DNA from: Gnetum montanum
Taxonomy: Eukaryota; Plantae; Gnetophyta
Assembly: GCA_015680685.1 (NCBI GenBank)
Contig: MNCI01001925.1
Span: 279,573 to 343,572 of the forward strand
DNA length: 64,000 nucleotides
Reading direction: 5' to 3'
Below are positions 25,139 through 52,669 of this stretch, one piece after another. Made by a program: the position numbers and the translations under genes. Each line of letters opens with the position of its first letter. Position 1 is the stretch's first letter. A model generated the notes under the pieces. It was not told the DNA's origin. It did not search any database and saw nothing but the letters and a program-made list of their open reading frames with translations.

Positions 25139-25309
25139 TGGGTTAGGAAGTAGTTATGCAGAGCATAGTAGCCCTATTGCTTCTTGCCCTATCAACATCC
25201 ATTGTATAGTTATCGCTTATCCACCTCACATCTATCCATCTATGCTAGATACACAAACTTACTTTCTTTAAACTGTTAACATATCTTCTATTTACATTAA
25301 AATTCTTCA

Positions 25310-25520
25310 AGGCCCGCTAAAGCCTAAAATTGGCAAGATTTCTTCTCTTTACATCATGTCCAATGGCTTGAAATGACCTAAACTAGCATTGGTCTAAAAT
25401 GTCCTAAAACTAGCAGGGGCCCGAAATGGCCTAAAACTAGCAATGGCTCAAAATGGCCTAAAACGAGCGTTGACCCGAAATGGCCTAAAACTAGTGATGG
25501 CCTGAAATGGCCTAAAACTA
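25310..25520 (+). repeat. About 28-bp tandem array, B copy 2
   Basis: Direct inspection. Confidence 0.85.
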
Positions 25521-25686
25521 AAACATTAAAAAAATGAAAACATAAAATTGATCACACAAATTACACATAAGCTAGCATAAAACCAATTTCTTTTCCAAAA
25601 TTCTCTTTTTCATTCAAAGCATTTTTCCATCAAACAATGTTTGCAACAGTTTTGCAAAAAATACAAAAAATCAAAAACCCATGCTG

Positions 25687-28600
25687 TCATATGTCATCTT
25701 CTCCCACATCATTTCCTTCTACATCTTTTCCTTCTACTTTGCCTTCCTTTGCACTACCTTCTTTTGCCCCTTCATTTTCACCCTCTACAGGCCCTGCATC
25801 TTGATCTTGAATCTGCAACATAAAAAAATATGAAGTTGTCAGCTAGAATCATACATAACAGCTAGAAAAACATAAACTGTTGCATCACAAAAAGTGACTA
25901 ACCTAAGATGGCCCTACATTTATCTCGAGAGGTATGAGATCCAAGCTAAGCCCAAGGCGGTGCCAGATCTCCTCCTTCGTGATATCTACCCAGTACCAAT
26001 CACTTGGTTCAGCGTTTCCAGAAGCCTTCTCCTTTTCAATGGCTATCCATCTCGATGGTCCCAAAGAAAAAGAAGAAGTGGCGGTCTCACCTATGGGAAG
26101 ATCCACTGCTCATTTAGGGGATTCATTGATCATCACTTGCTCCATGAACTTGTTGTAAGCCTCAGAAGCAGCAATGGCATTCATGAATGCTTCATAGGTA
26201 AACACCTTCATTGAAGCATCCTGGTATTATTTGTGGTAGGTGAAAATTTCTAGTTTATACATTTGTTTCTAGTTTTTCTGGGACTTCCCCCACTCGTAAA
26301 CTTTGGCATTGTAGTCTTTCCAGTCCTGGTTCTTCTAAGCCAACAAGTCCATCTGCATCTGCTATTCTATTATCTCCCAGGAAATATCATTGTTGTGTCC
26401 CACAGCTGTCTAGTATCTAGCATAATCTATGATAGCCATGCACCAACTACCATCATTGGTATCACAAGGAGGAACTCATTCTTGGATCGGAGGTCTCCCA
26501 TGTCAGTGCTTAGGTAAGCCTTCTCTTTCTTAGTCCTCTGGACCCGTTGTCACAGATCTTCATTGATGTGCCTACACTACCATAAGGAGTGTGCCGAGGG
26601 CAAAGCAAATTTTCTAGCCTTGTCGTATATGTGATGAGGCATCTCAGCGACTTCGGGTGGGAATGTAGGCATGGCGTAAACTTTCAACGCCTGTTTTGGG
26701 TTGCACTTGAGTCAAGAGGCGATAACCACACAAAGAGTGCATTAGTCACACTAGCGTAGCAAAGTTAGCAACTTAAGAAGTCTAGTGTAGCAACCTCAAA
26801 AAGCCTAGCATATTGAATTTACTTACCCACTTCAGGATCAACCTGTCTGAGATGGCCAATCATGTCGTCAATGACCCCCTACATGAAAGTAAGCTTTTCA
26901 GGGGTCTCGATCCATGGTTACAAGGAAATCAGGGGAGGTCCTGTAGCATTAATAGTGGTGTCTATCATACAACCAAACGTATCAGTAATGACTGAGATGG
27001 AATACAACAAAGCTATGAGTAACACGAACAACACTATAAGGGCTCCTACCTAGTAAACCCTCAGGGGTGATAATAGGGGGATCACCCATTGACATATCAT
27101 TGAATATATTGTCAAACTCACCAGCATCTAATTGTAGTTCCCCTCCTTTCTGGCTCAAAAATATGGGAGCACCCTTATCATATTCCTCTTTATTTTTTGG
27201 GACCTTTCTTTTCCAGGCACCAACATCTTCCTCATCCATACAAGACTCCTCCTTGTCGCCAAAAGTTTCCTCCTCTTCAATAGGAGTGTTTTCTTTGTCG
27301 GTGCGAGCCCCTTCCTTTGTGAGGAGGGATCCTTCTTCTCTCTTGACTGGGGCCCTTTCTTCAGAGACTGGGGCCTCTGTGCTGTTATTTTCCACCCCTG
27401 TCTTGGGGGTTGACACCTCTTCATCACCTTCTTCTTCTTCTTCTTCTTCCTCTGGTAGCAAAAACATATTCGCCATATAGCTTAAACAACATTAGCTTAG
27501 AGTAGGTGCTACACTATGATACACTTCCTAGCATAGCACAGCGTAGTAAGCATTTAATCAAGAGGTGAAGAAACAAACATAGATAAAAGAATTTACCAAT
27601 GGAGGGCTACATCCTATGTAGCTTAAACCACAGTGTCTTCCCCTCTTCTTCTTCTGCATGGGGAGTCTTCTCGGCTGGATGAGGCCTCTTTCACCATAAC
27701 TTGGTGGCCACCTTCTCAGCAATGAGATGTTTCCCTTGCAACATGCTACCTGTAGCAGCAGGGGGAACCTCTCCCACGCTATCCTAGCCATGGAAGTTGC
27801 GGGCTACCTAATCCTTAGTCATCATGGAAAATGACTCCCTAATAGCTTTTGGGGGATCTTGGGCTACGATGGTCTAGAGGATTTCATAGATCCACAATTT
27901 GGAAATCTGGTTACAAACTCGCATAACCTAGACTCCATTCTCACGGACTACCAAGAACTCTATGAAACACCACAAGCAAGCTATGTAAAATGCATGGTGC
28001 ACCTTGAAATAGGATTCATGCTTCTTATGAGGCACAACTATTTCAGCTTGCAAGCCTTTGCAAAGATGCCTAGCCTAGTTCTAGCGGGCCCCTTCATCCA
28101 TGACCTCCTGCATCACCCAAGCTTGCTCAATCTCAATAATCTTCCCTTGGAAAAGTAGCTTGGGAAACACATGGGCATGAAAGATAGGGTAAAAATATTT
28201 GGCAACACTTGGCTTGACCTTCTCCATGAGGATCCCTTTTCATCCTTTTGCAATCCCTACCCACTCTTCAGTGTCCCTATGATGGTTTGCCTCTTTGATT
28301 GTCTTTGATCCTACGGGGAGACCATCAGTAGGGAGATTGAAAAGATCCATAAATAGCTGGTCATTGATTTCAAGGACCATCCACATGCCGTGTACACATT
28401 TGTATAAGTAGTCTACGTTTTCAAAAAAAGAGTCAGCTAGGGTGAGCATCTTAGTGGCAGGAATGCTCGGGTTCATGGCTAGGAAAAAATCCATGAGCTC
28501 AATATCCTGAAGGTGCTTGATGAGGGATTCCGAGGTTGTGTTGCATAATCAGCGTTGGCTCTCATCTACCCCCGGTACTTGAAGTAGATGTTGGCTTTCT

Positions 28601-30244
28601 GATGCTCAGAGGTGATCACTGTCACCTCCTGGGACTTCTTTTTTGCTATAGAAATTTGCACGAAAATCCAAAATAGAAAAAAATAAGTTAGACAAGGCAT
28701 AAGTAGTAGAAAAAGCCAGAACAACACTCGAACATTTAGTAATTTACTATTTAGCTTACCAGGTCTAAACGGCGATAGGAATGGAGGAACATCAACTAAG
28801 ACATATTCAATAGTGATTGGTTTAAAGGGTGCCCATCCCTCATCCAACCAACCAGACTTGCATCTATCATAGATCTTGGAATACCAGGTTGGATAGGTCT
28901 TGTACTCAATCATGCATTGGCCTATCACACCTACGTGCATATTCTCAGCAGAAGAAAACTACTACAGCATCATCTGTGCTATGGCCAACACATCCATATC
29001 ACTATGAAGCCCATCACCATTGATGAAAAACATGGTAAAAAAAACACACTGTTAACATTTTCCTAGCGTAGCAAACATTGCAGTGTAGCAGAACATGTCT
29101 ACAAAACTCACCCACTGGCATAGTAAACGGTTCCTGGTGGGTTCTGGAAGAACATTCCCATGTGATGTGTAATAAATAAAGTATTATATGGATGGTAGAA
29201 ATTATACTTGGGCATCACCCAGATCCATGCCAAACACCTCACATTTCTTGGACATTGACTGGATCCTTCTCCTTGCTCGCTGCTAATTGCTTCGTCCGTC
29301 AAAAATCTTAGAATACCCCAATTTTCCCTAGACAATAGGGTTTCTGTTATGATGGTCACTACCTCCTCTACCAAGTGTAACCAAATGATCACATTGAAGT
29401 GCTGGAGGAGAAATTGTAGAAAATCTTGCACTCCTTCCCAGAACTAGACCACCTGCTACCCCGCACATGCATGGGGTGGAGGGACATTGGCCATTGGTTC
29501 GCTTATGCACCAGAAGACCCCTACGATTTCTAGGAAAATCAAGATTAGCTTAGTGCCACCTTGAACAATACAATATCAAATGTTAACAACATGTTCAAGT
29601 GTAGTTCAAATATAGCATAGTAGAATTGGTATTTAGTAGATAGCGTAGCATTATTCTCTTCATGCATATAGCGTAGGAAAAAAATATGAAGGGAATAGCG
29701 TAATAGAATTAGCTTAGCGTAGCAACAAGAAAAAATTAAAGACAAATCTTTAAACAAAGAAAAATTTAATGCATTGTATTCATTTAACAGATATGCCTGA
29801 CAAAGCGATTAGCATCACACCATGACAGAACACATGTTACGCTATCACATCACACACATGGCTAAACCCTCCTAAGGGTTGTACGCTACATGCATGCCAA
29901 GTGGTTAAAATCGTCCAAGCCCCTATGGCAATGGTAGCCACAATGATGGCGGTCTAGGCGCCATTGCATGCAACCTTAGCATAGCGTCCATACATTTGTC
30001 GTGGCCAAATTGGCAACAACGACGGTGTATAAGACAAAATAACGACAACACAATGATAGAGAAAGATAGATTTCAAAAAAAATATAAGAATAAAAACAAA
30101 AAGAATAAAAGCAATAACAAAGGCATTGGAAAAATAGAGGGAGCATAGTAGCCTACTGGGTCAACAGTGTCTCCTCTCACACCACAACGTGTACTTATGA
30201 CACACGTCCTAGGATTTCCTTTACTTTGTTGACCTTGACGAGTG
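25687..30244 (-). pseudogene. Antisense multi-exon accessory gene of element B (FCP1/NIF-like, plant-transposon domain, acidic and coiled-coil regions), degenerate; its 5' end lies beyond C at about 48298-48470
   Basis: ORFs 29108-29431 (DFLQFLLQHFNVIIW..NTLFI..FQNPPGTVY), 28566-28940, 28240-28494 (DLFNLPTDGLPV), 26982-27476 and 25903-26106 match the C exons in order; GT donors at equivalent positions. Confidence 0.85.
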
Positions 30245-30249
30245 TCAAG

Positions 30250-31511
30250 TGTACCGCCTGAAATCGTCAGTCTTCGGCTGGAAGGGAAAATAGAGGCCAT
30301 GGGATCGCGGGACTGGTACAGAAGACCCTGCCTTCGCCTGAGGGTGAGCTGGAATGTAACAGAGGTAGAGTACCTTGGGTGGTCCGCACGTGGATCAGAC
30401 AAGGATTTCCCCACGCGTACGCAAAACGCTAATACGCTGGGTTATGCATAAACGACGTGCAGGAGTAAATAGCAAAAACAGCGTGAAACGTAAACGGATG
30501 CAAACGAAGCGTGAGCGTAAACAGACGTAAACGATGTGTGGGCCAAATTGAAGTAAAATTGTAAAAGAACTTGTAGCAAATGTAAATAGTATAGAGTCAA
30601 AGTATAGTGCACCGGTCTAACGCAGTCGTGGGGGGACACAAGGCAGACGAAAAGCCCCGGCGTATGCAGGAATGACTCGGCCTGTTCCCAAGGCAGGCAG
30701 AGCGTAGAAACTGTGCATGCAGCATACAGGGCGTAAGAGGGTTTCAGCTCTTGTGCACATTGTAAATGTTCTCTGGTGTGCTCTGGGATTTTTCCCACCG
30801 TCTTGTGAAAGTGGGAAATGGGGGTTTTTATACAGGTTGTTATGCTAAACTCGGGTTGGACGACACGTGGCGCATTGACCAGGTGCATACACTTTACAAA
30901 TATACAAAATGTTACAACTACTGGGCGTATACGTTGCATCAAGTCGACGTATACATTGAAAATGCTGGGCGTAAACTAGGTGGACATGCTGAGCGCTGGG
31001 CGTATATGCCCACACGCTGGGCGTATACGCTAGTAAATGTTGGGCGTACATGCCAGGCGTATACGCTGATGAATGTTGGCCGTACATGCCAGGCATATAC
31101 GCTAAAGGATGCTGGGCGTACACGCCGGGCGTATACGCTGAAGGATGCTGGGCGTACATGCCGGGCGCATATGCCGAAGGATGTCCACTTGCTTCAATCC
31201 TTGCTCTTCGGTGTTATCTTCATGCTGTCATTGGAGATCTTATCGTCGAGTGTGTGCATCTGCAGTACCTGGGCGTGTACGCCGGAGAGCTGGGCATATA
31301 CGCTGGAGTTCCAGCCGTATACGCTAGACGCATATGCTGGAATGTTGGGCGTATACGCTGTATGCTAGGCGTATACGCTGGAGTGTATACACTGGCACCA
31401 TGTACTTAGCAAAAACTAAGTGTTGCGATCATGCATCCAGCGTCGTTCATGAGTTCCAGGGTCCTGTTTGGTGTCGGACAAGTACTAAGTTCCGAATTTT
31501 GTGGTGTTTCA
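30250..31511 (-). repeat. 3' LTR of element C (1262 bp)
   Basis: TGTACCGCC...GGTGTTTCA; direct repeat of 47039-48292. Confidence 0.96.
30920..31400. repeat. Array within the C LTR (U3): units of about 33 bp with the palindrome GCGTATACGC
   Basis: Repeating GCTGGGCGTACACGCCGGGCGTATACGCTGAAGGAT; also at 47710-48180. Confidence 0.9.
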
Positions 31512-31526
31512 TTGGCACCTCTTTGT
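31512..31526 (-). promoter_or_regulatory. Polypurine tract of element C
   Basis: Minus strand ACAAAGAGGTGCCAA directly before the 3' LTR; B has ACAAAGAGGGGCCAA at the same position. Confidence 0.8.
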
Positions 31527-32519
31527 TGACGCTTGGAGGAATCGATCCGAGAAGCGTCGACAAAGAAGTGCAAAACACCACCAGCAACTCGATAGAGACG
31601 TTGTCTACTGCCACTTGGATGAGATGTCATCGCACCGTGTTCAGTAGTACAGAGGATTGGGGAAAGGAAAATTTTGTATCTGGGAGGTCAGGGAGATTGC
31701 GGGGATTGATGATCGGTCCAGGAGATTAATCAGGGGAAAGGGGATGCTCTGATGTGAGGTATGCCGATCCTTGTCAATAGCCATTGTTTAGCAGACTCGG
31801 AGTTTAGACATGCGAGGTGTGTCTTTTGGTGGAACAAGGCTCTTGGTTAGTGTGCAAGAGAACTTGTTGATGGGACCAAAGCTACAGGAGGATGTGTTGC
31901 ATTCTTTGGGAGAACAGGGCCCATGTTTAATGTTCAGGGGAACCTGTTGGCAGGGAGCCAAAGCCATGTGACTTGATGCTTTTTGACCATTGTGGGCACA
32001 AGTACTTGGTTTTGAGACGACTGCCTTCCCGCCTGGGGCTTACATAGGAAGTGCCCGGGGTCTCTCTCTCTTTTTTTTTACATAAACTTTGCTCTGTTTG
32101 TGTACTCGTGCACAGGTGTTGTACTGTGTGGCGTATTGCAGCGTGCAACAGTGTGCTCAATGTTTTGAATGTACTGGGTGCGTCAAGGGTGTAGTTGAGT
32201 GGAAATTGGGGAATGAATGGGGATGTACTAGTGAATGGTTTGATTTAGTCCTGCTAGGTATGTTGCGAACATTGTCTTATCTTGCTGCTTACGACGGAGT
32301 GCATCTTTGTACGGAACTTCCAGGTGTCATCCTGCAAACATAACGCCAAGGAGATAAGAAAACTATGAGCGAATAGATGAGCTTAGACTTACATGATGGC
32401 TGATGGCACAGAGGTGCTGAAGGACGGCCGACACTATGTGTAGATGATAGCAATATTGATGATGAGCGATGCAGTGAAGCTGATGGACGATCATGATGGT
32501 GGATTGATGTGACGGATGT

Positions 32520-32855
32520 GGATTTGCCAATTTATAGTCTTGGTAAACTATTATGGGTTAGTTTTATGTCATAACCCATTGGACATTGCCTGTTTAGTGT
32601 CATGGCGGATAGTACATTGCCATTTTTTAGTCTTAGCGAACTATGAAGAGGCAAGCTAGCTTATAGTCTTGGCAGACCCTGATGGTTGTGACGGTGGAAA
32701 TTTACTGTCATGCTAGACGGGTGGTAGTTTATTATCATTGCGGACACTGTGGTATTATTTTTAAGTCATAATCCAGGACTGTTCTATGGTATCAGTTTAT
32801 CGTCATGATTCCAGGACAAGCTGTGGTATCAGTTTATAGTCGTGATTCCAGGACT
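32520..32855 (-). repeat. Degenerate array of about 30-35 bp units downstream of the integrase in C (core ATGACNATAAACT)
   Basis: Repeated AGTTTAT.GTC(A/G)TG on the plus strand. Confidence 0.7.
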
Positions 32856-32876
32856 TACACGTACCTGAGCTTATGT

Positions 32877-35800
32877 TTAGATGTAGAATAGTTTCAGATA
32901 CAAATGATTTATCGAATTAGCGAGCTCGTTCCCTTCTATGTCAGCTAACTTGAATGCACCATTGTCGAATGCCTTGATGACCACGTAAGGCCCTTCCCAG
33001 TTGGCTGAGAATTTGTCCGGGTGTTCTCGAACAGCTTTGAGTACGAGATCGCCTTCGTGGATTGGGCATTTGTTAATGTCATGCCGATGTCGCTGTCGTT
33101 GTTTCCTTTGGTACCATTTGATCTGATCGAGTGCGCGTGCACGTTCCTCTTCCACCAAGTCAAGGTCAATGAGACGTAGTTCATTGTTTTGCCCGTCGTC
33201 GAGGAGTCCGGAGAGTGTGATCCTTAACGACAGTACCTGTAATTCCAAAGGTAAAACAACTTATGAACCGTAAACGAGACTGTACGGAGTTTTACCTGTT
33301 GACATTCGGTGAGTAGTGCGGTGAGCCCATAATGCATATAGTAATTGCTCGTGCCATTTCCTTTTGCTCTGGGTGAGCATTTTCTTGAGTATTGTAATGA
33401 TCGTTTTATTGGTTGCTTCTGCTTGCCCATTGCTTTGAGGATAGTAAGGAGAGGAAAACGAGTGTTTGATCCCCAGACTATCGCAAAAGGTTTTTGTGTC
33501 GGCACTGCTGAATTGCGGCCCATTGTCAGTGATAATTGTCAAAGGGGTGCCAAAGCGGGTTATAATATTTTCTAGGATAAAGTTGCACATGTGTTTAGAA
33601 GTCGTTTTTCGAAGGGGAGCTGCTTCTACCCACTTCGTGAAATATTCAGTAGCGGTTATGATGAAACTGTGCCCTGCAGAAGATGAGGGTGTTATCGAGC
33701 CGATAAGGTCCAATCCCCACTTCTGAAAAGGCCATGTTATTTGTGCTGTGTGCAATTCGTTTGGTGGTACATGTGTTAAGTTACTATGTTTTTGACAAAT
33801 ATTACATGTTTTGACTTTGGAGAAGCAGTCGTATTCCATGTGTGGTCAATAATAGCCTAAGCATCTTATTTTCGTGGCCATGGCTTTTGGTGCTATGTGT
33901 CCTCCACATAGTCCCTCATGTACTTGATCAACTATGGTTTGGGCATCGGTATTACTTACGCATGTTAGTAATATACCTTCGTAGGATCTACGACACAGTG
34001 TGTCCCCTATGAGGGTGTATTGCCTCGATCGTTTCCGCACTACATCTTTCTGTGCATTTGTTAGATGTCGTGGTGTTTCACTGCGCAGGAGGTACTCTTT
34101 TATGTCATCGTACCATTCTATTGCGTGTATTGTGCTAACAGATGCGATCGGCAACGTATCGGAAGTTATTGGTTCATCACAGTTGATTACGGAGCTTGGC
34201 AAGGCATAGAACATGTCGGGCGATATATTTAACGCTAGTGTGGCTAACGCGTCTGCGATAGTGTTATCATTTTGAGAGACGTGTTGCACATCAATGTGTT
34301 TGAATTGTTTCATTAAATGTTTCGCCAAGTCACAGTATGGTTGTAAATGTTGAACTTTGCATGTGTAAATGTCTGTAACTTGGTTTACAACCAATTGTGA
34401 ATCCCCTCTGACTATGAGCCGTGTGATATCTAAAGCCAGTGCTGTCATGAGACCTCTAAAGAGACCTTCATACTCTACTATGTTATTAGTATAGTGAAAA
34501 CTGAAGAGATAGGCAAAGGGTCAAATCTCCCTGGAGGGATAAGTGATGACAACAGCCGCACTTCCTCCTCGAGAGGTGGATGCTCCATCAAAGTTTGAAA
34601 TAACATCGTAGTCATCAGGCATTGTGTCTATTGTGCTTATACTTTCATTTGGGAATTCAGGCTCTATGGTTGCTTGGTCATGCGTTGGTGATGCAGCCAT
34701 TTGATTTACTATGGCTTGACCTTTAACTAATGATTTTGTTACGTAGTACAGGTCAAACTCAGCTATCATGGCTTTCCACCAGGCTATTCGACTCGTTTCG
34801 TAAATGTTTCCTATTATGGCTCCCAGTACGTTGTCCTTGCAAATTACGTAGACTTGATTGCGGAAGAGGTAGTGTCGCCATTTTCTTAGAGAAAAGACCA
34901 AAGCTAAACATGACCTCTCCACGTCGTTATATTTCTTTTCATGGGCAACTAAGGCATGGCTCAAGTAGTATACAGGGACTTCAGTTCCGTCATCTTGTTT
35001 CTGATAGAGCATAGATGCGATGGACAATTCTGAAGTGGTAAGGTAGATGTAAAACGGTTTGTTGTTTTGGGGCGGGTAGACCGTAGGCAGTCGGGCAAGT
35101 GCTGTTTTGATATTTTTGAAAGCTTCCTGGCACTGCGAAGTCCATTCGAAATGGACATTTTTACGCAATAGGTGGTTCATAGGTTTTAGTTTGTTTGTTA
35201 ATTTTTCTACGAATCTCCTGATGAACTGCAATTTCTGTAAGGTTGCTTGGTGGTTTTAGGTTTGTTATGGCCTTGACCTTATCGGGGTTCACTCATATCC
35301 CTACTTCTGAAGCTATGAATCCAAGCATTTTGCCTGTTTTGACATCGAAGATGCATTTTTTTGGGTTAAGTCTTAGTTCATATTTTAAACAACGTTTTAA
35401 AACTAAGTCGAGGTCTTGTACGTGTTGTTCGATCATTTTTGATTTAACCACGATGTCATCTACATAATCGTTGAGTGATCGTAGCATGTAATCACTAAAG
35501 ATAAACATCATGGCTCTTTGATATGTGGCCCCTACGTTCTTGAGACCGAAGGGCATCATAGTGTAACAAAAAGTTCCCCATGGGGTCATGAAGGTGGTTC
35601 GAAGTTGATGTTCCAAATTGATGCGTATTTGGTTGTATCCTGAGAAACCATCCATAAAAGATAACAAGGCATGTCCTATAGTCGAGTCAACAAGTTGATC
35701 GATGCTAGGCAGGGGAAAGTCATCTTTTATGGTTGCTACATTCAAATCTCGGAAGTCGATGCATAAGTGAATGCTTTTGTTTTTCTTCGGGACGATGACC

Positions 35801-36338
35801 ATGTTGGATACCCCTTCGGCGTAATCAACAGCCCGAATGAAACCAGCTTGATAAAGCTTGGTGATCTCATTGCGGACTGCCAATGCCACCTCGGGTCGAA
35901 CTTTTCGTGCTTTCTGTCTTATCGGTCTCAGTTTGGGATCCAAAATAATGTTGTGTTGGACAATTCTAGGATCTAGCCCAAGAATGTCCGTATAAGACCA
36001 AGCGAATGCTTTCATGTTTTCCCTAAGTACGTTTTGGATGTCTTGTGCCAAGTGTGGTTGTAGTAGTGTACTTAATTTTAATATTTTTATTTCCCCATTA
36101 GGCATGGTAATGGGTGTTTCAGCTAACGGATCTTCAGTGATGTTTTCGGCCTCTATGTCAAGAAATTTCGTCATGCCTCCATAGTCATCTGTTGTTTGCT
36201 GTGTTGAGGCTATGACCGCATTGTCCATTAGTGGACTTAAATTGATGAAGTTTATGTCAATGTCCCGTGTAATGATGCCGTGTGGTCTGTCAATGGTTAA
36301 CGGTGCGGCTAACTGCAGGCAGTCCATTGAGCTTGCTC
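32877..36338 (-). pseudogene. pol: pol of element C: RT - RNase H - additional (archaeal-type) RNase H - integrase; few stops and frameshifts
   Basis: RT: CIDFRDLN, MDGFSGYNQI, MPFGLKN, YVDD. RH: PVYYLS..EKKY..E. aRH: FDGAS, NNIVEYEG, GDSQLVVNQV, ADALA. INT: HEGLCGGH..CNIC, WGLDLIG, TDNGPQF, NGQAEATNK, WEGPY. No chromodomain. Confidence 0.97.
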
Positions 36339-36479
36339 CTGCCAATAAACCGAGAGTTGCATGAGCAAAGGGATTGTTCTGTGTCTTTTGACAATTTTAG
36401 ACTATGCGTACGTGTATAACAGTGGATTATCGTCACACCTGGATGTATGGCAGTTTTATGCCTTACCGGGCAGTGTGCG

Positions 36480-36560
36480 GCAGTTTAAGGCCATACCAGG
36501 CCAATGGGCGGATGGGGAAATGGCAGTTTAAGGCCGTACCGGGCCAATGGCTATTTAAAC
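36480..36560 (+). promoter_or_regulatory. Putative promoter of the antisense gene in C: two GGCAGTTTAAGGCC..GGCCAATGG repeats and TATTTAAA (36552-36559)
   Basis: CCAAT x2 and a TATA-like box about 430 bp upstream of the predicted ATG; A and B have CTATAAATA at the equivalent position. Confidence 0.5.
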
Positions 36561-36987
36561 CAGCGTAAATGTGTAAAAAGGGGTCTACGGAGGAACTAGG
36601 ATGTAATAATCCTTGTTTTTAATGAATTTTTTGTTAAATTTTATCATTTTGGACAGATTTTGGTGAAAAATAGGAAAAAAGGCAAAAAAGGCGAAAACGA
36701 GGCAATGGCGGCGTAAGCGGCGGTGGCGTCAACGTCAGCATCATCAGGCGCTATTTGTTTTCTATTTTGAAAACGACGGCGTAGAGCGTAACCCGAGCGA
36801 GCGTGAGCGTAAGCGTACAATTGCTAAAGCGTAGGTGTAAATCACCATACCCTAGCGTAAGAGTAAACTGGAACCTAAGCGTAGATGCCGAAGGTTGAAC
36901 CCAGCGTAGATGTCGAGGCTTAAAATTCTTAACGCCAGCATAAAGTTACTCAACGTGAACGTAGATCGCTAGCGTAGACACTCTGAA

Positions 36988-39900
36988 ATGGGCAAGGGCA
37001 AGGAAGTGGAGGACCAGGGGCGGAAGGGTCCCGATCTAACCTTCGCTGAGGAGACGGAGGCCATGTTGCAGGGTTTTCCCAGGCCAAAGATTCCTGTGTG
37101 GCCTGCGACATCCTACAGGTAGGCTTTGATCCCTGCCTCTATTATTGTTTGTGTGCTTCATTGTATTCGTAGTGTAAATGATCTCGGCGTATACGCCGAG
37201 CGCAGGGATTTTTCATCATGAGGGTTTTCGGCGTGCACGCCAGCATAACTGTGCAGCGTAAACGGTGTTCAATCCTGGCGTAAACATTTTTTTGCATTGT
37301 TTTAGCATAAAAGTTCGTCAGCATGTTTTTCATCGGCATAAGTTCTATTTCTTGCGACGGCGTATACGCTGAGGGTTTGTTCGGCGTATACGCCATACGC
37401 GTACAGTTGTCTTCGGCATACCGCTTTATCTTTCTGGCATAAACTGTTTACGTCGAACTTGAAATTGAGCGTATACGCCGAGGGTTTGCTCAGTGTATAC
37501 ACCGTATGCGTGAAGGGGTTGGGGTGTCAGTGTAAAACAGATCGCCGTTAGCATAGACGCTGAGTTAGCTGGCATGTACGCTGAGCTAAATTTCGTTCTT
37601 TACGCTAAGTATTAGTTGGCGTATACATTCTGCAGACAACGTATACGCTGGATTGAATGCTTTTTTTGTGCTAAGTGTAGATCATTGTATACGCTCTGTA
37701 TATATCGTATATGTTAATTCTGAATCGCTCTAAGTGCTAAGTTTGTTCAGCGTACACCGTATGCGGCGTATACGCTGAGCGTGAATCATGGGCGTAAATC
37801 GTGGGCGTATACACTATTGTATAGCATATACGCTGGGCGTAAGTTATGTTTTTCGCACTGTAGAGTTGACATATATGCTCTATGTACAGCGTATACGCTG
37901 GGCGTAAACAGTTAGTTAAATTTTTGATTTTTTTTTGCCGATTTATGATGCAAACTTTCGTTTTGTGACATTGCGATTGGTTACAGGGACAACAAACACT
38001 TCCTTATCATGGTTGAACTCGTCGGGATGCTAGCATGGGCTGGCCGCGTTGAGGAACACGATCTTCCCCCAGCTTTATTTGTGGATGACAAGGGGGTCTG
38101 GTTTAGGGAAGGTGCTGGCGAATTTCTGGCTTTCTTGTTAACCAATTTTGAAGTGGCTATGTGGTCATATTTTGATGAAGTGACCGCACGGAGTGTGGTC
38201 GATGCAATACTGCCCGAGGCCACCGAAGGTGTCATGGTCTTCATGGAAGACATTGATGAGGGGCCTTTTGTTGATGAGGATGGCACTACCCGCAGGCCCA
38301 AGTCAACCCACCTGTTAACGCGTGTGTGGGCATTGCTGCCACCGGGGTTGGATTATGTCAATAATACATTGTTTATAGCTGCCCATGCCCATACCTTATT
38401 CCAGAATCCTCCTGGCACAGTATACCGAATAGCCAAGTGGGACAATTTACATTTATTGCTTTGCTTATTTTCATTTAATGTTGGTTTCTTGTTTTAACGC
38501 ACACTTGTTTGTAGACCGAAGACCAACCCAAACGGGACCCTCATTGAGGATGAAGGGATAGCCCTCGCTTGCGCCACTCTTGAGGCCCTTATGACGGCCC
38601 CCACTCTTCATGGGGCCATACTAGCTCAGACGAAGAGTTCAATGGTCCGTTTGCATAATCAGTTTTCCAGGGTCTTCGCGATGTGCAAGGGTCATGGGTG
38701 GCTTCAGGAAGATTGGACAGATCAGAGGCCAGTCTTTCCTCATAACTTTAGCAACACTTCCAAATCTGCCACTAGCGGTGGGTGATAACATTTCTTAGAT
38801 GCGTTAGTGGGTTTTTTCGACTGTTTGGGGTTATGCTGATATGGTCATCTTGACTTGTTTTAACAATTGACGCACCCTCCGGTGAGGATCCTGTGACGAC
38901 AGGACGAACTGAGATAACTTTGTCAATGAACTTCGGGGGGTGGAGAAGGCATAGAAGTGGCTGCGTAAGAAAGCCTCGCCACTCCTAACTCGTTGCCTGG
39001 ACGATGCCGGCCTCCTGGAGCTTTTTATGATGCCTAGCCCTGATGTCTCAATCGGGGAGATGATAGGGATCGTGGACTCTTTTAATGAGTCTGTTTCTCA
39101 GTACAGTGTCTGGATTAAGGGTGTTAAGGTGGTGTTTCATCTGTCTCCTGTGTTCTTTTCTAATTTGTTTGGTATGCCAGTAGATGGCCTACCTGTAGTA
39201 TTGGACAGGTCTCATAAAGAGCTCCAAACAATCCACGATCTGGAATCTTGGCTTGGCGTGATGAAAAACACCAAGGGATTCTTGATGCAGGGGAAAGCAA
39301 AGGTTGTTGAGGTGAACGAATTGCATCCCCTGTTTCGAGCACGGGTGTTTCCCAAAACTCTTTCTCAGGTGCAGAGTTTTGGGGTTGAGGCGGTACGCAT
39401 CATGCAGAGTATCTTAGAAACTGGCATGTGCTATAACTGGGCTCAGTTTTTGTTGGCGGGCATGCATAAGGAGATAGTGCAGTTGTGCTCGAATATCGAA
39501 GTACAATCACACTTCACCTTTGCCTTCTTCGCTGGTTATCTCCACCGTTTTACCGAGTTCCTTGTGGTGTGTGTGAACAACAAGTTTGTCCTACGGGATC
39601 GGGGTCAACTATCCCGCCTGTGGGTCAAACATTTGTTTGTGACAATGAGATCGCAGGATGCCCCTGAAGGTATCGATGAGTCTGTGTCTATTACTATAGG
39701 GGGATCATCTGGCGGTTCCATCCATACGCGGGATAGTCTAGGGGTGGAGCTAGTGGATGTACCTTTAACCGCCAGATGGGTAGAGCAGGTTATTAAAGAG
39801 ACCATTGGGAAAGCCAAGTCGAAATTGAAAAGACTTGAATGCACCATGGAGGAAGTTGCCGAGATAAACCAGCCACGCGTGAAGTGGATACGCTTCAAGA

Positions 39901-41569
39901 TACCTGGTAAGCGAAGCTCATATGCTTGTTATTGCATCGTTTTCATTCATTTATAACCCCTACAATTGCTTACGTGTCGTTATTGTTTTCTATTTGATGA
40001 AGTGAGGAAGCAGGCCGTAGAAACCATCAGAGAGGAGGAGGATACGCGTACAGAGAAAAACAATGAGGAGGAAAGCCCAGAGAAGAGCCAAGGCGGGGGA
40101 ACGGAGCTATTAACAGAGAGGACTACTGACCCTGAACCTTTAGATGACCCGGACGCTATCAACCAAATGTTCAGTAGCTTCCTCAAGGGTGACTTGGATT
40201 TGGGCGATCCCCCAGAAGGTGACAAGGATCAAGGTATGTCTTCACTTTTAGTTGGTTTTTATTATATTAATTGTGGCTCCTACTTTTTTTATTTTTGTGT
40301 TTGTGGCTTAGATGAAGGCAGCGGTACCAGAACGGTACGGTTGGACGTTCCCATGAAGACGGTTCCTCCTGAGGGGACCGCTGAGGTTAGCTCTTCCTGT
40401 ACTCGTCAGCTGCTTATTTGGTCAGAGATGCCAAATAAGTCGGATTTTGTGGATGGGATCGCGGAAGAAGTCGTTGAACATCTCCAGGAAGTCCATCCTG
40501 ATATAGGTATGAATCATTTAAAGATTAGGAGCTTCGTGTCTTACGTGTACCGTTTTAATGTTCGTGTTCTCTGCGTGGGTAGGCGCTAAACTAAGATGGG
40601 ATCCCTCTGAGGGCATCAGTATGGAAAGCCTAACTACACTCTCCCCAGAAGTAGAACAGGTGCCAAGGCCTGTTTATGAAGGGGTTGCAGAAAGCCTTGC
40701 ACACAATGCCAAGTCGTTGTGGACTTGTAGGCGTTCTGTTGAACAGTTGTGGCTACAAGTACAGGCAAAGGAAAAGGAAGTCTCTGCCGTAACAGAGGAG
40801 CGTGACGATTTAAAGGCTCGATACGAGTTTGCCGCTGCTAGACTAAGTGGAGATCGTTCTTGGCGAACCTCGGAGATTACGTACACCAGGTATTGGAACC
40901 TTCTGAACCGTCATGCGTCACTGACTCGGAGAATAGCGGAATGCAAAGCTCAAATTGATCTCCTGAACCTTAAGTGTCAAGATTGGAAGGCTTTCGCTTC
41001 CAAGGTTCGCAAGTGGGGTCAGGATGAGAAGAACCATAAACATCAGTACAAGAAGTCGCTGAAAGAGGTATCTATTGAAAAGCGGCAACTGGAGATGTTT
41101 GTGGAGGGTTTGGGTTTGCGTTCCGCCTTCGATACCTTTGCCCAAAACACAATTGTGGAAATGGAATCGCCTAAGAGGGTCATCACAACTGCTTCTGGGG
41201 AGGTGTCGGTAGGTGAATTTCCTCTGAAACGCCCTACCTGGTCAGCGGTCGACAAAGGCAAGGCTTTGGCAAACGTTGACTTAGGCCTGGACGGAACAGA
41301 TTGGGCCAGCGTTCCAGAGGAAGAAATCCTTCGTCGGCTGGAGTTTGGCTTAGGGGGATCCCCTATGGTAAACGTTTTGTCTTTATGAAGTTAATTTATT
41401 GGATAATGTTTAAAATGTTTAGCATTTGCTTATTTTTGTGTTGGTTGTTTGTTTTTGGTGTTCTTAGCATGAGGGTGACGATGATACTCACGAGGCTGGC
41501 CCCAGTGGAGCAGGGGCCCCTGACACTGGTGGTTCTAAAGGAGATGATCCTCCTATCACGGACACTTAG
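36988..41569 (+). CDS. Antisense 8-exon accessory gene of element C (about 1065 aa): FCP1/NIF-like pseudo-phosphatase, PMD/Transposase_32-like domain, coiled coil and acidic tail; this copy is lightly damaged
   Basis: Predicted exons: 36988-37118, 37987-38436, 38515-38777, 38867-39906, 40003-40233, 40312-40506, 40583-41367, 41468-41569. Six of seven introns are GT..AG and phase-compatible. The intron 3 acceptor reads TAACAA (inferred G>A). There is a 1-nt frameshift at the G run 38935-38940 and a TAG at 38952. Confidence 0.8.
37180..37910. repeat. Dispersed GCGTA / GCGTATACGC motif array in predicted intron 1 of the C antisense gene
   Basis: Same motif as the C LTR array and the 5' leader (46320-46990). 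Confidence 0.8.
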
Positions 41570-41685
41570 TATTTTTGTAGTTTTTTGTGTTTTTTTTGGC
41601 GGTTTTTTTGCTAATTTAAATTGATACGGGTATTGTAACTAGAAAATGTTGAAGAAAATAGGCACTATTTGTACAACATTGCATG

Positions 41686-41691
41686 AATAAA
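41686..41691 (+). terminator. Putative polyadenylation signal of the antisense gene in C
   Basis: AATAAA about 115 nt after the stop, followed by T/GT-rich sequence. Confidence 0.5.
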
Positions 41692-41826
41692 TATTTTTTT
41701 GTTGGTTTTTAAGTTGTTTGCACACATGACATGATACTAAAGTATTTTTGGGTTCGCTTTTCTGTTTAACTGCAATGCACAGAAGTAATGATAAATAATA
41801 TGTAAACAGGAGAACAAGTTTTGCAC

Positions 41827-42140
41827 TAGTTTAAGGCCATTTCGGGCCCCAATGCATAGTTTAAGGCCGTTTCGGGCCCCAGTACGGACGAGTAATATGT
41901 CATGGCGGATATTTCGTAGTTGACTGACCATTTCTGATCATGGGTTGTTTTATGTCATCGCGGACATGATAGTTTAACGTCTTTCTGGACAAGGAGTGTT
42001 GCAATTTTTTATTTTTTTTTTGCTGTTTATTATTATTTCTTTGTGTTTTTGGGTTTTATCGTAGTTTAGCGTCATTTCAGACAAGTTATAGTTTAACGTC
42101 GTTTCGGACTGTTCGTAGTTTAATGTCGTTCCGGACGTTG
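41827..42140 (-). repeat. Short repeat arrays downstream of PR in C (GGGCCCGAAA(C/T)GGCCTTAAACTA x2 and CCGGAACGACGTTAAACTA-like units)
   Basis: Direct inspection; homologous to the A and B arrays. Confidence 0.75.
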
Positions 42141-42147
42141 TAATATT

Positions 42148-45100
42148 TCATTTTAGTTGTTTCTTAATTTTCTTCATTTTTTTATCAGGGATTGTATTGA
42201 CCGGTATGATTTTGTATTCTCTATCTCCTTCGCTGATCACGTTGAATGGCAATTCAGTCCAGGAGATGTCTATTAGAATGTTTTCGGTATCGATACTTTT
42301 AGGTGCTTCGATGTCGGTTGTTGTTTTTGTGTTGGTTTTTTCATGAGGTGACGCGTGTACAGTGTTAAACACAGGTATTTCGGCTTCAGGCTCTTGTCCC
42401 GTATTCGAAGGTTCACTAACCACCAGTTGCGTTTTGTTTGAGTCCTTTTGACCAGGCTTATCGAGTTCAACCTTGGAGCCTCGATCCTCGTCTGTGTGCG
42501 ATGCAATGAGGGGAGAGGCTGCTTCCCCATGTATGATGATTTCACCACCCTCGTAGGGTAGGTGAATCTCCTGATGTATAGGGGAGGACACAGCTCTCAG
42601 TTAGGCCAATCAGGGTCTTCCTAATATTAGGTTGAATCTTGGCATTTCATCGACGACGAGGAAGTTAGCAGATGTGGGGAACTGGTCTCCTACTACGAAG
42701 TCTAGGGTTATTGTGCCTTTGACTAATACGCGCGACCCGCTAAAGGACTTTAAGCATGTCGTTGTGGTGGGTTTGATCAAGTTGGTGAGCCCCAATTGTT
42801 CAATGATAGGATACGGTATGACGTTGGTGGCTGCCCCATAATCTACATGTACCCTATGTATTTTGAATTGGTTTACATGTATAGTTATGAACATAGGGAT
42901 TGTTCTTGTCTCGCCTGTCTTCTTATCTACTTTGATGTTCTCATCATGGAAGCTCAAGGGCTTAGGAACGGCACCGTGAGATGGATACATTACGGCATGA
43001 ATGGCCGGTTCGCTCGGAGGCAAGTTCTTGCTAACTGGGATTGACGTGAGCATGCGTACTAGAGCTTCTCGATGAGTCTGGGATGTTAGTACCAAGTCAT
43101 ACAAGCTTAACGAGGTGTTTTTCTGTTTTAGGGCTTGAGTAACTTGTGTCAGGGCTATTGCGAAATCTCTACTATCAGGGACGTTTTTATTAGCAGTGAC
43201 TGGGTCCATTGGACCCAATAGTTTTATTTCGTGTTTTGGTGGTTTGTCATTATTGTTAAGGCCTACCATTTTATACGGTTCTTGTGTTTCAGATGACTCA
43301 CTGTTGCTATCCGTGTTCGGTCGACCATTGGATGATGACATGGGGATAGAGTTAAGTGGAGTTGGTTTGGGTGGCCCCATGGCTAGCCATTGGCGTTCCT
43401 TCTCCATGTGCTCATGTGTAAGCCTGTCTACTAGGCGTTCTCGTGTGTTACGCGGAGGTGGAATTGGCCTCGGAGCCTGGGATTGCCCTGGGACCTTTAC
43501 TACATATGGAGCCGAACGGGGTTGCGGGTGGACGGTGGGATATGATTGGGTAGGAATCTGTCCAGGTATCCTGATGACATACAGGATTGGTCTTGGTGGA
43601 GGTTGGACCTCTGTTGTTGCAACGGCGGGTGGTACTTGGACTACAAAAGGGGTAGGCCGAGCATGAGGGGTTGGTGTATCCGCGGGATTGACCGGAGGGA
43701 TGCGCACCACATATGGTTTTTGACGCATTGTGATGTTGGGGGTGGGCACGGTCGGGGGCACTCAAACTACGTATGGCCAGTGCGGGGCGTGGGATGGTTG
43801 AGATGTAGGTGCGGATGCAGCAGGAGGAATTTGAACCATGAATGGCTTTCCAAGTGTTTCTTGCTTATTTTCATGGTAGATGGTGTTGATGTGGGGTGTG
43901 TCGGAATCGTCATCACAATAGATTGCGTCAATTACGTACGCTGCCTCTTTAGTATTCAGGGGGTCTTTGTACACCCCATGGTTTGATTTTGTGGTTGGAC
44001 GGGGTTAGCCCCGTCAAAAGTGATTTTGCCATCATCAATCATCCGCTGGATATCCTGTTTCAAGGTGAAGCAGTAATCCGTTCCGTGCCCATTGCATTGA
44101 TGGTAGTCACAGAAGTGATCCATCCTAAACCATTGGGCATGGGCGGCTCATCTGGCGTTGCTAGGCTTAGGTTCTGTATGAGTTGGCAGAATCGTTCGTG
44201 CCTTTGGATGGCCGCAGGGGATAATTGCTTATGTTGCATGAACCCAACCTTTAAGAGTTGGTCAAAGAGCTGGGACGGTTTCATTGGTAAAGGCGTGTAC
44301 TGAGAAGGTTCCTTCCTCTCGAAATTACGCTCACAGTTCGTCGGGTTTTGTGATGATGACTCTGTGGTTGTTGTGGGAGCGGGTTGATAGTAGTTAGTGG
44401 TGGTTTTGGGCGGTCTTTGTTGATGTGTGGTGTTCATTTGTTGGGTTCCCGCTAATGCTGCTATAGTTGTCTTGGCCTTCTCTTTATCCTTTTTAGTATG
44501 TTGATTTTTGAAGGCCAAGTATGCCGGGTCATGGCTATTTTGAGCCGCTTCCTCTATGTTTCTGATCTATAAAAATGCCTGATTCACATCACGTGCATTG
44601 AGGTAATAAAGTTTGGACTTAAAGAAATCATTGACAGCCACCTTCAGAATTGTAAGCCAATAGGTTAGAGAGATTGGTTCGTGCAGCTCGTTGACAGCCG
44701 CACTCCATCTCTGAATAAACTTCTGTGCAAGTTCAAGCGGTGCTTGCTTGATCTGCATGAGGTTGTCCAGTGTGGCCTCAGGTTTCAAGTTGTACTTGAA
44801 CCGGGTCACAAACTGGCGTAAAAGATCATCCAAAGAGAAAATAGAGCTCCTAGGCAGGGCCCGGTACCAGTCGAGTGCTCTCCCTGCGAGAGACATGGAA
44901 AATACTCAGAGGATGGAGTGGGGACAAGCCTGGAGCAGCACACATTCTAGCCAGAATGTTATAAGGTGCGCGTTGGGATCGGTCTCCCCGTTGTACTTTG
45001 TTAATGTGGGCAAGGGGACACCTTTAGGTAAGGTTAGAGGTGGGACCGAAGAGCTGATAGGGTCATTGTTGTAGAAATCCACTACCTTTAACTCTCCCTC

Positions 45101-46261
45101 AGTGGCCGTTTGGAGCCATTTTACCTCTTCAGTAAGATCTTGCATTATCTTTTTGGCGTCCACCTAGTCTTGGGCGCTTGGTGATGCGGCGGCTTGGGGT
45201 TGTGGTATACTGTACAAGCTAGATTGTTGCGTGTTAGGGTGAAGGGCTGACAGCTGTGCGAGTGCTTGTGGAAAGGTTGCGGCAGGCAGCGCTACAGATG
45301 GCACGTGGTAGGGAAAGGGTTGTTGTTGGTGTTGCTGTAGCTGGGGTTGTGCTTAGGGAACATTGATTAGTGGAACCGCGTGGGGTGGTGTATGGGGATG
45401 GGGAACTTGATGCGACGGTGCTCCCCTTGCTGGCCATTACCCCGCCACATTATGGGCGGGGACTCCCTATTGGGTCACGGCTGTTTGGGGAACTGTATGT
45501 TCTTGGACGTGTGGTATGAAGTGGGTGGATGTGGATGCCAAAATCACATGTGGCACCCCTATCACCCTTGGTGGGAGTGTTGCCCCTAGGTTATCGAAAG
45601 GTGGCGGCACTTGTGAGGATGGGCCCGTAGCGACAGTAGGGACAAACGCGAGTGGGAAGGTGTTGGGTTGGTGATCGCTCAGAAGAGGGACGTGGACTAG
45701 TGCTGCTGTTTCCGGTGGTGGCTATTGAGCCTGGACGAATCTAAGGTGTTGCAAGGGCATGAGTTCCCCTGTGCCAGGATGGAAGATGGGGTTGACCTAT
45801 GCTTGAGGGCTTAAGATATGGTACGACTCTCCTTGCTCGGATTGAGCGGTGAATCCATCCTCATCCTCTGGTTGGGGCTCTAGTGCGGGCTAGTCCAACT
45901 AATTGTTTCTTTGAAGGAGGAGTTGCGTGATGAGTTCCGAATATTGTTTAGGAACGGGAATTACGTTGTACGGAGAAGGGATGAACTCTCGTCCCCCCCT
46001 GTAATATAGCTCAAACTGCCTCTTCACCTCTAGTTCAGCTTGATCAACAGCCAGGTCAGCTTGTATTTTAATACAGATAAGGTTGTACTAGTCCTTGGTA
46101 ATGATGTTAGAGGCTGGGTCCCTCCCTTGCAGCCTTACGGATGGGCGGGGACCCGCTGTGGGTTGCATTCCTGGGTGTTGTGGTATAGGCTGTTGGACGG
46201 CAGTGAGGTCCATGGTGGCGGCGGTGTGAGCGGGGACAGCAGTGTTGTTAACAGGGTTCAT
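42148..46261 (-). pseudogene. gag: gag-protease of element C (interrupted by several stops and frameshifts)
   Basis: ATG at 46261; N-terminal RPSVRLQGRDP domain; KYNGETDPNAHL; RALDWYRALP; knuckle CDYHQCNGHGTDYC at about 44075-44120; protease VHVDYGAATNVIP and FNLILGRP; ends at a stop at 42148. Confidence 0.93.
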
Positions 46262-47017
46262 GATGCTATGTCACGGATAGGAGTAAGTCTGGAAAGGCGG
46301 AGTTGCTCTGTAATGTGGCGTGTAGTGTATACGCTTCAAAGGACAGCATATGGTATCAGCGTATACAACGTGTGCAGTGTATACAGCGTATATGGGCAGC
46401 GTAGACGCTGGAAAGCATATAAGGCGCAGGATGGATCAGCGTAAAGTGAGACGGCGTAAAATAAGAGCGTAAGATAGGGAGTAGCGTACAGCGTAAAAGA
46501 GGTGATCAACATAATGCAAGAATGTAATAAGTTGCAGCGTAAAGGACCACTTAGCGTAAAATTGGTGTTTAGCGTAAAATAGACGAACGTGACAAACTCA
46601 GCGTAAACACCAGCTCAGTGTAAAACAGGCCAGAGCATAAAACAGAAGATAGCGCAAAACAGGCGAGCGTACAATGGGTTGCAGCGTAAACAATTTGCTG
46701 CGTAAAATTCACAGCGTAAACAGTTCATAGCATGAAACAGGCTTAGCGTAAAGGCCGACTCCGATGTAAAGACAGGCACGTAAAACAGGTTGCAGCATTA
46801 ACAGTAGAGCTTAAAATAGATGAACGTAAAACAAAGATGTAGGAGAGCAGGTTTTTAAGAACGTAAACGCTGTGCAGCATAAACACTGGACAATTGCGGG
46901 TTGGGTTTTCGAACCGGACAGCATAAACGCTGGGAAAGTTGGGGCAGCATACCATTAGCAGCATAGACGCTTAACAGCGTATACACTGGGAGTTGCGGGT
47001 AAGGGTTTTAAGGAGGT

Positions 47018-47033
47018 CCTCCTTCTAGCGCCA
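47018..47033 (-). promoter_or_regulatory. Intact tRNA-Asn primer binding site of element C
   Basis: TGGCGCTAGAAGGAGG, complementary to the 3' end (..CCUCCUUCUAGCG-CCA) of plant cytosolic tRNA-Asn(GUU) as recalled; 5 nt from the LTR. Confidence 0.9.
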
Positions 47034-47038
47034 ATTTT

Positions 47039-48292
47039 TGTACCGCCTGAAATCGTCGGTCTCCAGCTGGAAGGGAAAATAGAGGCTGTGGGATCGTGGG
47101 ACGGGTACAGAAGACCCTACCTTCGCCTGAGGGCGAGCTGGAATGCAACGGAGGCAGAGTACCTTGGGTGGTCCACACGCGGATCAAACAAGGATTTCCT
47201 TGCGCGTACGCAAAACGCTAATATGCTGGGTTATGTGTAAACGACATGCAGGCGTAAACAGCAAAAACAGCGTGAAACGTAAATGGATGCAAACGAAGCA
47301 TGTGCATAAACAGACGTAAACAATGCGTGGGCCAAATTGACGTAAAAATATAAAATAACTTACAACAAATGTAAACAGTACAGAGTCAAAGTACAGTGCA
47401 CCAGTCTAATGCAGTCGTGTGGGGACACAAGGCAGACGAAAAGCCCTAGCGTATGCAGGAATGACTCGGCCGGTTCGCATGGCAGGCAGAGCATAGAGAT
47501 TGTGCGTGCAGCGTACAGGGCATAAGAGGATTTCAGCTCTTGTGCACAACGTAAATGTTCTTTGGTCTGCTCTGGGATTTTTCCCACCATCTTGTGAAAG
47601 TGGGAAATGGGGGTTTTGATACAGGTTGTTACGCTAGACTCGGGTTGGACAACACGTGGCACGTTAATCGAGTTCATACACTTTACAAATATACAAAATG
47701 TTACAACTACTGGGTGTATACGCTAGGTGTATATACCACATCAAGTCGGCGTATACGCTGAAAATGCTGGGCATGAACTAGGTGGAGATGCTAAGCGCTG
47801 GGCGTATACGCTGGTGAATGTTGGGCGTACACGCCGGGCATATACGCTGATGAATGTTGGGCGTACACACCGGGCGTATACGCTGAAGGATGCTGGGCGT
47901 ACACGTCGGGCATATACGCTGAAGGATGTTGGGCGTACATGTCGGGCGCATACACCGAAGGATGTCCACTTGCTTCAATCCTTGCTCTTCGGTGTTATCT
48001 CGATGCTGTCATTAGAGATCTTGTCGTCGAGCGTGTGCATCTAGAGTACCTGGGCGTGTACGCTGGAGAGCCGGGAGTATACGCTGGAGTGTTAGGTGTA
48101 TACGCTGGACGCATACGCTGGAATGCTAGGCGTATACGCTGTATGCTGGGCGTATACGCTAGAGTGTATATGCTGGCACCATGTACTTAGCAAAAACTAA
48201 GTGTTGCGATCATGCAACTGGCGTCGTTCATGAGTTCCAGGGTCCTATTTGGTGTCAGACAAGTACTAAGCTCTGAATTTTGTGGTGTTTCA
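47039..48292 (-). repeat. 5' LTR of element C (1254 bp)
   Basis: Adjacent to the PBS; direct repeat of 30250-31511. Confidence 0.96.
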
Positions 48293-48456: not shown

Positions 48457-48466
48457 CTATTTATAG
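48457..48466 (-). promoter_or_regulatory. TATA box (CTATAAATAG) for the antisense gene of B
   Basis: Canonical plant TATA in antisense orientation; identical in A at 60167-60176. Confidence 0.65.
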
Positions 48467-52646: not shown

Positions 52647-52669
52647 TGCATGAAGCAGATTAGCACATG

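Follow-up and report, generated by a model that had tools for sequence, protein, structure and literature searches.

In Ty3/gypsy retrotransposons, the Gag:Pol ratio is set by frameshift or read-through, and Pol enters the particle as a fusion to Gag. The Pol mRNA of foamy viruses is spliced from LTR-driven RNA. Foamy-virus Pol is made via a spliced mRNA without Gag and is packaged separately (PMC3705302), and it retains the protease (PMC6669543). In the Ogre elements of pea and Medicago, gag-PR and RT-INT lie in two frames, and the spacer between them, 274 bp on average, is a short intron that is spliced to fuse the frames and sets the Gag:Pol ratio (PMC6317226). Antisense accessory genes with their own promoter and flanking tandem repeats are described for the Tat elements Retand and Grande, where they are located between pol and the 3' LTR (PMC11963269, PMC7264820), and the extra ORFs treated in PMC7264820, PMC11963269 and PMC6317226 are placed upstream or downstream of gag-pol. 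The gymnosperm lineages Tat J and Tat K with structure #1 possess a dual RNase H in a retrovirus-like order and are sister to the angiosperm Tat L; the accessible text on these lineages describes no PR-RT split, inner antisense gene or splicing (PMC10508981, PMC13468544).

The window analyzed here, a stretch of 64,000 nucleotides from Gnetum montanum, contains three nested LTR elements (A, B and C) that were recognized by self-comparison and are all decayed. Their common order is gag-PR, a stop, an antisense NIF/PMD-like gene and RT-RH-aRH-INT, so that the separation of a gag-PR frame ending in a stop from the RT-RH-aRH-INT frame, as given in the preliminary description, is seen in all three. 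The main features are the following, with the inner parts given for element C.

About 7055-14020 and from 56155 on, continuing beyond the window, plus strand: element A, whose antisense gene is interrupted by B in its 3' part
14021-56154, plus strand: element B, LTRs at about 14021-15760 and 54396-56154, with C inserted at 30245-48297
30250-48292, minus strand: element C, with TG...CA ends and a primer binding site (PBS)
47039-48292, minus strand: 5' LTR of C, TG...CA, 87% identical to the 3' LTR
30250-31511, minus strand: 3' LTR of C
47018-47033, minus strand: PBS of C, TGGCGCTAGAAGGAGG
42148-46160, minus strand: gag-protease region, Retrotrans_gag at 44570-44905, protease at about 42520-42950, followed by a tail of about 110 codons
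41822-42136, minus strand: short tandem repeats behind the gag-PR stop, units of 27-30 nt with a CCTTAAACTA-like core
36987-41500, plus strand: antisense multi-exon gene, 3' end approximate, also carried by A and B
36987-37117, plus strand: predicted first coding exon of the antisense gene
37949-38497, plus strand: NIF/FCP1-like exon
38955-39956, plus strand: PMD-like frame
40522-41388, plus strand: coiled-coil-like frame
41368-41467, plus strand: GT..AG intron of the antisense gene, 100 nt, spliced in reads of related copies
32877-36327, minus strand: RT-RH-aRH-INT frame with RVT_1, RT_RNaseH_2, RVT_3 and rve, carrying stops and frameshifts

Element C is flanked by a 5-bp target duplication with one mismatch, and its PBS TGGCGCTAGAAGGAGG presumably matches the 3' end of tRNA-Asn. 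Its Pfam domains are Retrotrans_gag, RVT_1, RT_RNaseH_2, RVT_3 (the extra RNase H) and rve, with an aspartyl-protease match that is weak and under the cut-off. The gag-PR frame ends with TGA at 42150-42148 and is interrupted by stops, and its 5' end is approximate. Searching with the frames of C (tblastn) revealed the same order in A and B, namely gag, PR, three antisense frames, RT, RH, aRH and INT. The spacers between PR and RT measure 5820, 5968 and 5975 nt in the three elements, which agrees with the earlier statement that RT lies about 6 kb from the protease. Since the RT of C is 61% identical to that of A (238 columns), the split layout is old and not the accident of one insertion.

Several features are shared with Ogre, as described in PMC6317226: the RT-RH-aRH-INT order with aRH between RH and INT, gag-PR and RT-INT in two frames, an acceptor-like site at a similar distance before RT, the 5-bp target duplication and a PMD-like extra ORF. 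However, the short Ogre spacer is replaced here by about 5.8-6 kb with an antisense gene. The dual RNase H and the retrovirus-like order are shared with Tat J and K. As in Retand and Grande, an accessory gene in antisense orientation, with a probable promoter of its own, is flanked by tandem repeats, but here it faces RT head to head in the stretch between PR and RT. This layout appears to be undescribed so far; in the literature searched, no Ty3/gypsy element is described with an antisense gene between PR and RT or with an RT-INT mRNA of its own, and subscription papers or supplements could hold such a description.

Features of the Tat lineage of Ty3/gypsy, to which the three elements belong, are the LTRs, the PBS and the domain order gag-PR-RT-RH-INT, and the aRH is represented in C by the RVT_3 match between RT_RNaseH_2 and rve and in A and B by homologous segments. 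In RT trees of 159 and 43 rows, whose reference rows carry no lineage labels and were assigned to lineages from motifs and species names, A, B and C form a clade of their own (100/99) together with one Logan protein. This clade lies outside the angiosperm Ogre/Retand group (99/93) and joins angiosperm Ogre/Retand-like proteins at 99/92. A single clade of A, B, C and 14 Ogre-like rows, a group that was defined after the first (159-row) tree, was rejected by the AU test (p 0.001). The nearest proteins reach about 50% identity; those that are named come mostly from angiosperms (30 of 150 looked up). No homolog of the RT N-terminus was found near its own length, and among longer proteins there were only distant ones, from angiosperms where named. 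The homolog search gave no match in viral contigs. The sister position fits the gymnosperm Tat J or K of PMC10508981, a membership suggested by tree position and that literature.

The 11 metagenome loci compared are not of the A/B/C lineage, and none of them carries an antisense gene. Ogre-type loci among them (L001 787-1036, L005 7907-8124, L007 1899 onward) exhibit a short Ogre intron with a TTTCAG acceptor about 220-260 nt after the donor; in L005 and L007 the donor AA/GTAATT (the slash marks the splice position) overlaps the gag-PR stop and the intron is about 260 nt long. The elements described here differ from these loci in phase, in having a local candidate donor and in an RT that falls outside Ogre and Retand. 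In the Ogre-type loci L002 (336-746 and 6449-9277) and L001 (1-1100) RT-INT was found with no PR detected upstream, L002 containing a second integrase fragment; L002 and L001 look truncated or rearranged.

The sequences and coordinates of the putative splice acceptor and of the conserved Met at which RT had been proposed to start were correct for all three elements. On the minus strand, C reads GGTTTATTGGCAG/GA GCA AGC TCA ATG, with the AG at 36340-36339, 5.8 kb behind the gag-PR stop at 42150-42148, and the ATG at 36327-36325. In B the AG ends at 49165 and the ATG is at 49177, while in A the acceptor is broken, AA replacing AG at 60719-60720, with the ATG at 60732. Phase 1 and the 11-nt spacing between acceptor and Met are identical in A, B and C, as was stated before. 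Within the PR-to-RT spans, TTNGCAG/G occurs only once among 344 AGs in C and once among 407 AGs in B, each time at the RT acceptor, and by an approximate plant splice matrix this acceptor also ranks first of 344 in C and first of 408 in B.

All three elements have conserved a short non-coding block, located 25-45 nt before the AG, that contains a motif resembling a branch point. DNA homology therefore does not begin at the AG, as had been assumed; what holds of this claim is that protein homology between C and A/B starts close by, just past the Met (tblastn, from residue 6). The T content of the 200 nt before the AG amounts to 33-43% in A and B compared with 24-28% in the exon, and the enrichment in C is weak (28 vs 22%). 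Among the 40 of 163 variant rows listed for reads of related copies, none falls within 36323-36350, from the tract to the Met, and 11 fall within the 48 nt below and 10 nt above. That 36340-36339 is a splice acceptor is well supported by these sequence features, including its first rank in C and B; the junction-read part of the check yielded no junction read at the AG among the joints listed, at low depth.

The conserved Met has a G at +4 in A, B and C and an A at -3 in A and B. Since 10 of the 28 methionines of C are kept in both A and B, its conservation by itself is weak evidence. Between the PR stop and the RT Met, the 5.8-6.0 kb contain 93 (C), 125 (B) and 151 (A) ATGs, so that translation of RT from genomic RNA by scanning, frameshift or read-through appears implausible. 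A stop located directly behind the acceptor in A and B was dropped as evidence, also against a fusion of the frames: A and B share 12 stops (of 25 in A and 26 in B over 1099 codons) where 0.59 are expected, decay repeatedly strikes the same codons, and this stop thus proves little.

The antisense gene has its start 650-850 nt from the RT acceptor and is oriented in the opposite direction to RT, so that the two are arranged head to head. The head-to-head regions are 648 (C), 846 (B) and 684 nt (A) long and contain the following features.

36552-36559, plus strand: TATA-like box of C, TATTTAAA on the plus strand, the sole pattern match in 36340-37000
36436-36441, minus strand: candidate donor CAG/GTG of C, first intron base 36438
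36339-36438, minus strand: predicted 5'-UTR intron of the RT-INT mRNA in C, 100 nt, with branch-point-like motif, pyrimidine tract and TTGGCAG
36325-36327, minus strand: conserved Met of C, 11 nt past the acceptor
48458-49179, plus strand: head-to-head region of B, TATA box at 48458-48465 (TATAAATA on the minus strand), donor CAG/GTG at 48577
48577 (donor) to 49165 (acceptor), plus strand: predicted intron of B, 589 nt with tandem repeats, Met at 49177
60168-60734, plus strand: head-to-head region of A, TATA box at 60168-60175 (TATAAATA on the antisense strand), donor CAG/GTG at 60286
60286 (donor) to 60719-60720 (broken acceptor), plus strand: predicted intron of A, 435 nt, Met at 60732

The preliminary description had named no donor for this acceptor. 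We aligned the leader, the four gag-PR copies (A, B1, B2 and C), the post-PR region and the pre-RT region and listed the conserved GT sites. Across the three elements this revealed a local donor candidate in all of them and no phase-1 PR donor shared by the four gag-PR copies. Each head-to-head region contains one single [AC]AG/GT, in A, B and C always CAG/GTG, located 114 (C), 112 (B) and 111 nt (A) from the first base of the TATA-like box. The distance from donor to acceptor (100, 589 and 435 nt in C, B and A) varies with the number of tandem repeats.

The pattern ATAGC-N(103-110)-CAGGTG has four matches in the window, three of which are the donor sites; 0.29 are expected, and none of 100 shuffles reached four. 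Among 20,000 shuffles of the C region, the box-donor pattern occurred in 0.08% in its strict and in 1.4% in its loose form. Since the pattern was chosen after inspection, A and B share their ancestry, and the box of C is about 10 nt off in the MAFFT alignment, we take this box-donor association as suggestive only (about p 0.01-0.02). When translated by eye in the RT frame, the residues encoded before the donor are unrelated among the three elements, and A has a stop three codons upstream of the donor, so the first exon looks non-coding. Assuming a transcript start 30 nt past the box, it would contain one (C), four (B) and three (A) upstream ATGs, which counts against a separate mRNA unless transcription starts later or these ATGs are a result of decay.

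Several other donors were considered and rejected. A leader donor at 46952 is weak in A and B and in C would add an out-of-frame ATG, a gag donor (17811/10680) is absent in C, the donor at 49130/60685 is only 35 nt from the acceptor, which is too short, and the donor at 37040 falls inside the antisense coding exon.

We favor, with a probability of roughly 0.6, that RT-INT is translated at the conserved Met from its own spliced mRNA, which would probably start at a promoter that also serves the antisense gene. Of the two options raised earlier, a 6-kb fusion intron or an own spliced mRNA, the latter fits better because of the conserved CAG/GTG, the lack of a shared peptide before the donor and the lack of a shared phase-1 PR donor. 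The full-length LTR-driven RNA would serve as genome and as message for Gag-PR. A second sense RNA would begin with a short non-coding first exon ending at CAG/GTG, a 5'-UTR intron of 100-590 nt would be removed, and RT-RH-aRH-INT would be translated from the conserved Met. The promoter of this RNA is probably shared head to head with the antisense gene, which would likely put both donor and promoter close to RT, outside PR and the leader. Alternatively, a small exon might be joined from the 5' LTR leader without an own promoter, giving the same protein product. By analogy to foamy-virus Pol, RT-INT without Gag or PR might be taken into the particle through binding to RNA or Gag, and Gag-PR might cleave it in trans. 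The likeness to foamy viruses is proposed from sequence and has its limits: PR remains here in the gag frame, about 6 kb upstream of RT, and the candidate donor, unlike that of foamy Pol, adjoins an internal TATA-like box. A caution against an own promoter may be drawn by analogy from Candida Tca2, where a promoter exists at the gag-pol junction, yet Pol is made from LTR-driven RNA (PMC2194720).

The other option is a fusion of the Ogre type, in which an intron of about 6 kb with the whole antisense gene would be removed from some genomic RNAs, Gag-PR would be joined in frame (phase 1) to RT-RH-aRH-INT, and the Met would be incidental. We consider this unlikely but worth serious attention, since this mechanism has been tested in the nearest relative (splicing removes the spacer between PR and RT in the Ogre elements of pea and Medicago, PMC6317226), the acceptor lies at a similar distance from RT (by our own count about 70 codons before the first RT motif, about 58 in L001, L005 and L007), and joining to Gag, the usual entry into the particle, would solve packaging. 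The absence of indels in the 11-nt spacer is also what a coding junction requires, and AA/GTAGTT, found at the stop behind the PR tail in A, B1 and B2, resembles the Ogre-type AA/GTAATT. However, this site is in phase 2 and is absent in C, whereas the acceptor is in phase 1. None of the phase-1 GT codons in the alignment occurs in all four PR/tail copies; the best case, where the protease fold ends, shows GT in just two of them, C and B2. Moreover, the Ogre-type introns among the loci compared measure about 260 nt and are in phase 2 in two of three cases, and a fusion would leave the conserved CAG/GTG unexplained. If it should occur nevertheless, it would imply a regulated 6-kb intron housing a spliced antisense gene, which is undescribed in the literature searched.

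RNA reads came from runs of the same species, one set covering 31520-47030 (X1, X4, X5, X7) and a second one 35950-37150 (X1, X4, X6, X7). The intron at 41368-41467 is spliced in four reads of X4, four reads of X5 and one contig of X7, and in none of X1; relatives of the antisense gene are thus transcribed and processed. Among 15 of 31 joints listed for 31520-47030 there is none at 36339 and none from PR to RT, the latter speaking against a fusion. No joints are listed in 35950-37150, which holds both predicted intron ends, and none of 13 of the 32 loose ends listed there lies at 36339-36340. In the poly(A) runs, the depth is similar on the intron side (36351) and the exon side (36322), with 3 vs 3 reads in X4 and 4 vs 5 in X6. 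As depth was low, the listing of a joint needed three reads and most reads were less than 90% alike, the missing junction is weak counter-evidence; the reads may derive from dead copies. X1 says little on splicing, since it is without a junction at the antisense intron too. In X1, reads of one orientation seemed to become fewer upstream of the AG; this was discarded, since the losses between 36322 and 36351 are proportionally similar for the two orientations.

In addition, eight reads of X4 and one contig of X7 join 34064 in the aRH region to 40417 in the antisense gene, with 6352 nt left out. The ends are non-canonical with seven other letters between them, and the join is probably a transcribed deletion copy elsewhere in the genome.

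Two-step or mixed schemes seem improbable to us. CAG/GTG could be a recursive site, acting as acceptor and then as donor within a long intron, and in A it scores high as an acceptor (10.0; 6.8 in B); however, every CAG/GT donor partly scores as an acceptor, and that of C lacks a tract. Otherwise, splicing from the phase-2 site, present at the ORF end in A and B, would bring the stop of gag-PR to a position closely behind the RT Met, and Pol could then arise by reinitiation or a +1 shift, but this site is missing in C and no read supports its use. Least probable of all is that there is no splicing, RT-INT being made from an unspliced internal transcript or by internal ribosome entry and the motifs being kept by chance or as promoter elements of the antisense gene, since, even though every listed read crossing the site is unspliced and the comparison covers two independent lineages only, the branch-point-like block, tract, AG and donor occur in correct order and strand in both lineages.

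If RT-INT is indeed made from its own spliced mRNA, this stand-alone RT-integrase would be a plant counterpart of foamy-virus Pol, divided at a new place, between PR and RT; in addition, one promoter would tie the expression of the polymerase to that of an accessory gene. The split might also explain gymnosperm elements that lack Gag and protease in a domain survey. In the supplement table of PMC10508981 (97 rows by our own count), all five structure-#1 Tat-J representatives are without GAG and PR, compared with 7 of the 92 others (Fisher p 1.2e-5). The search tool of that study takes flanks of 7,500 bp (PMC8775202), so a spacer of about 6 kb would make such rows appear without GAG and PR. Divergent Gag and PR missed by the profiles would have the same effect. 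The table fits an unnoticed lineage-wide PR-RT split. Tentatively, one could assume that the whole gymnosperm lineage Tat J (Ginkgo, yews, cypresses, redwoods) has a three-gene genome, in which Gag-PR is LTR-driven and a single internal bidirectional promoter serves both the NIF/PMD gene and a free RT-RH-aRH-INT gene, transcribed back to back, the polymerase never being fused but packaged and cut in trans. Our literature search found no description of such packaging and cleavage for any Ty3/gypsy element.

The phosphatase-fold exon of the antisense gene is NIF/FCP1-like (Pfam NIF E 9e-4, under the cut-off; Atlas 0.94, 30 of 30 matches NIF), with counterparts at 29123-29551 and 58872-59292, both on the minus strand. 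The homolog search returned no homologs of this exon. A frame resembling PMD/DUF1985 comes next (Atlas 0.87), which we regard as no more than a lead. A predicted RNA-polymerase-II CTD-phosphatase-like domain in an accessory gene of a retrotransposon may be of interest.

On the sense strand, repeats with a (C)CT(T/A)AAACTAG-like core are found behind the gag-PR stop and before the RT acceptor, and in B and C also behind the integrase stop.

41822-42136, 36450-36540 and 32760-32855: tandem repeats of C
19948-20163, 48657-48870 and 52662-53025: tandem repeats of B
12774-13096 and 60366-60525: tandem repeats of A

Element B contains a tandem duplication (16220-21600 and 21598-26972, 89% identical) that covers the end of the leader, gag-PR and the 3' part of the antisense gene and that arose after insertion or during reverse transcription. 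Both nested insertions (30245-48297 and 14016-56159) struck the antisense gene of their host element: C is inserted in the first antisense exon of B, in opposite orientation, and B in the 3' part of the antisense gene of A. A fourth related element on the minus strand occupies positions 1-1940 and leaves the window at the left, with a gag fragment at 120-386 and leader similarity at 1770-1937.
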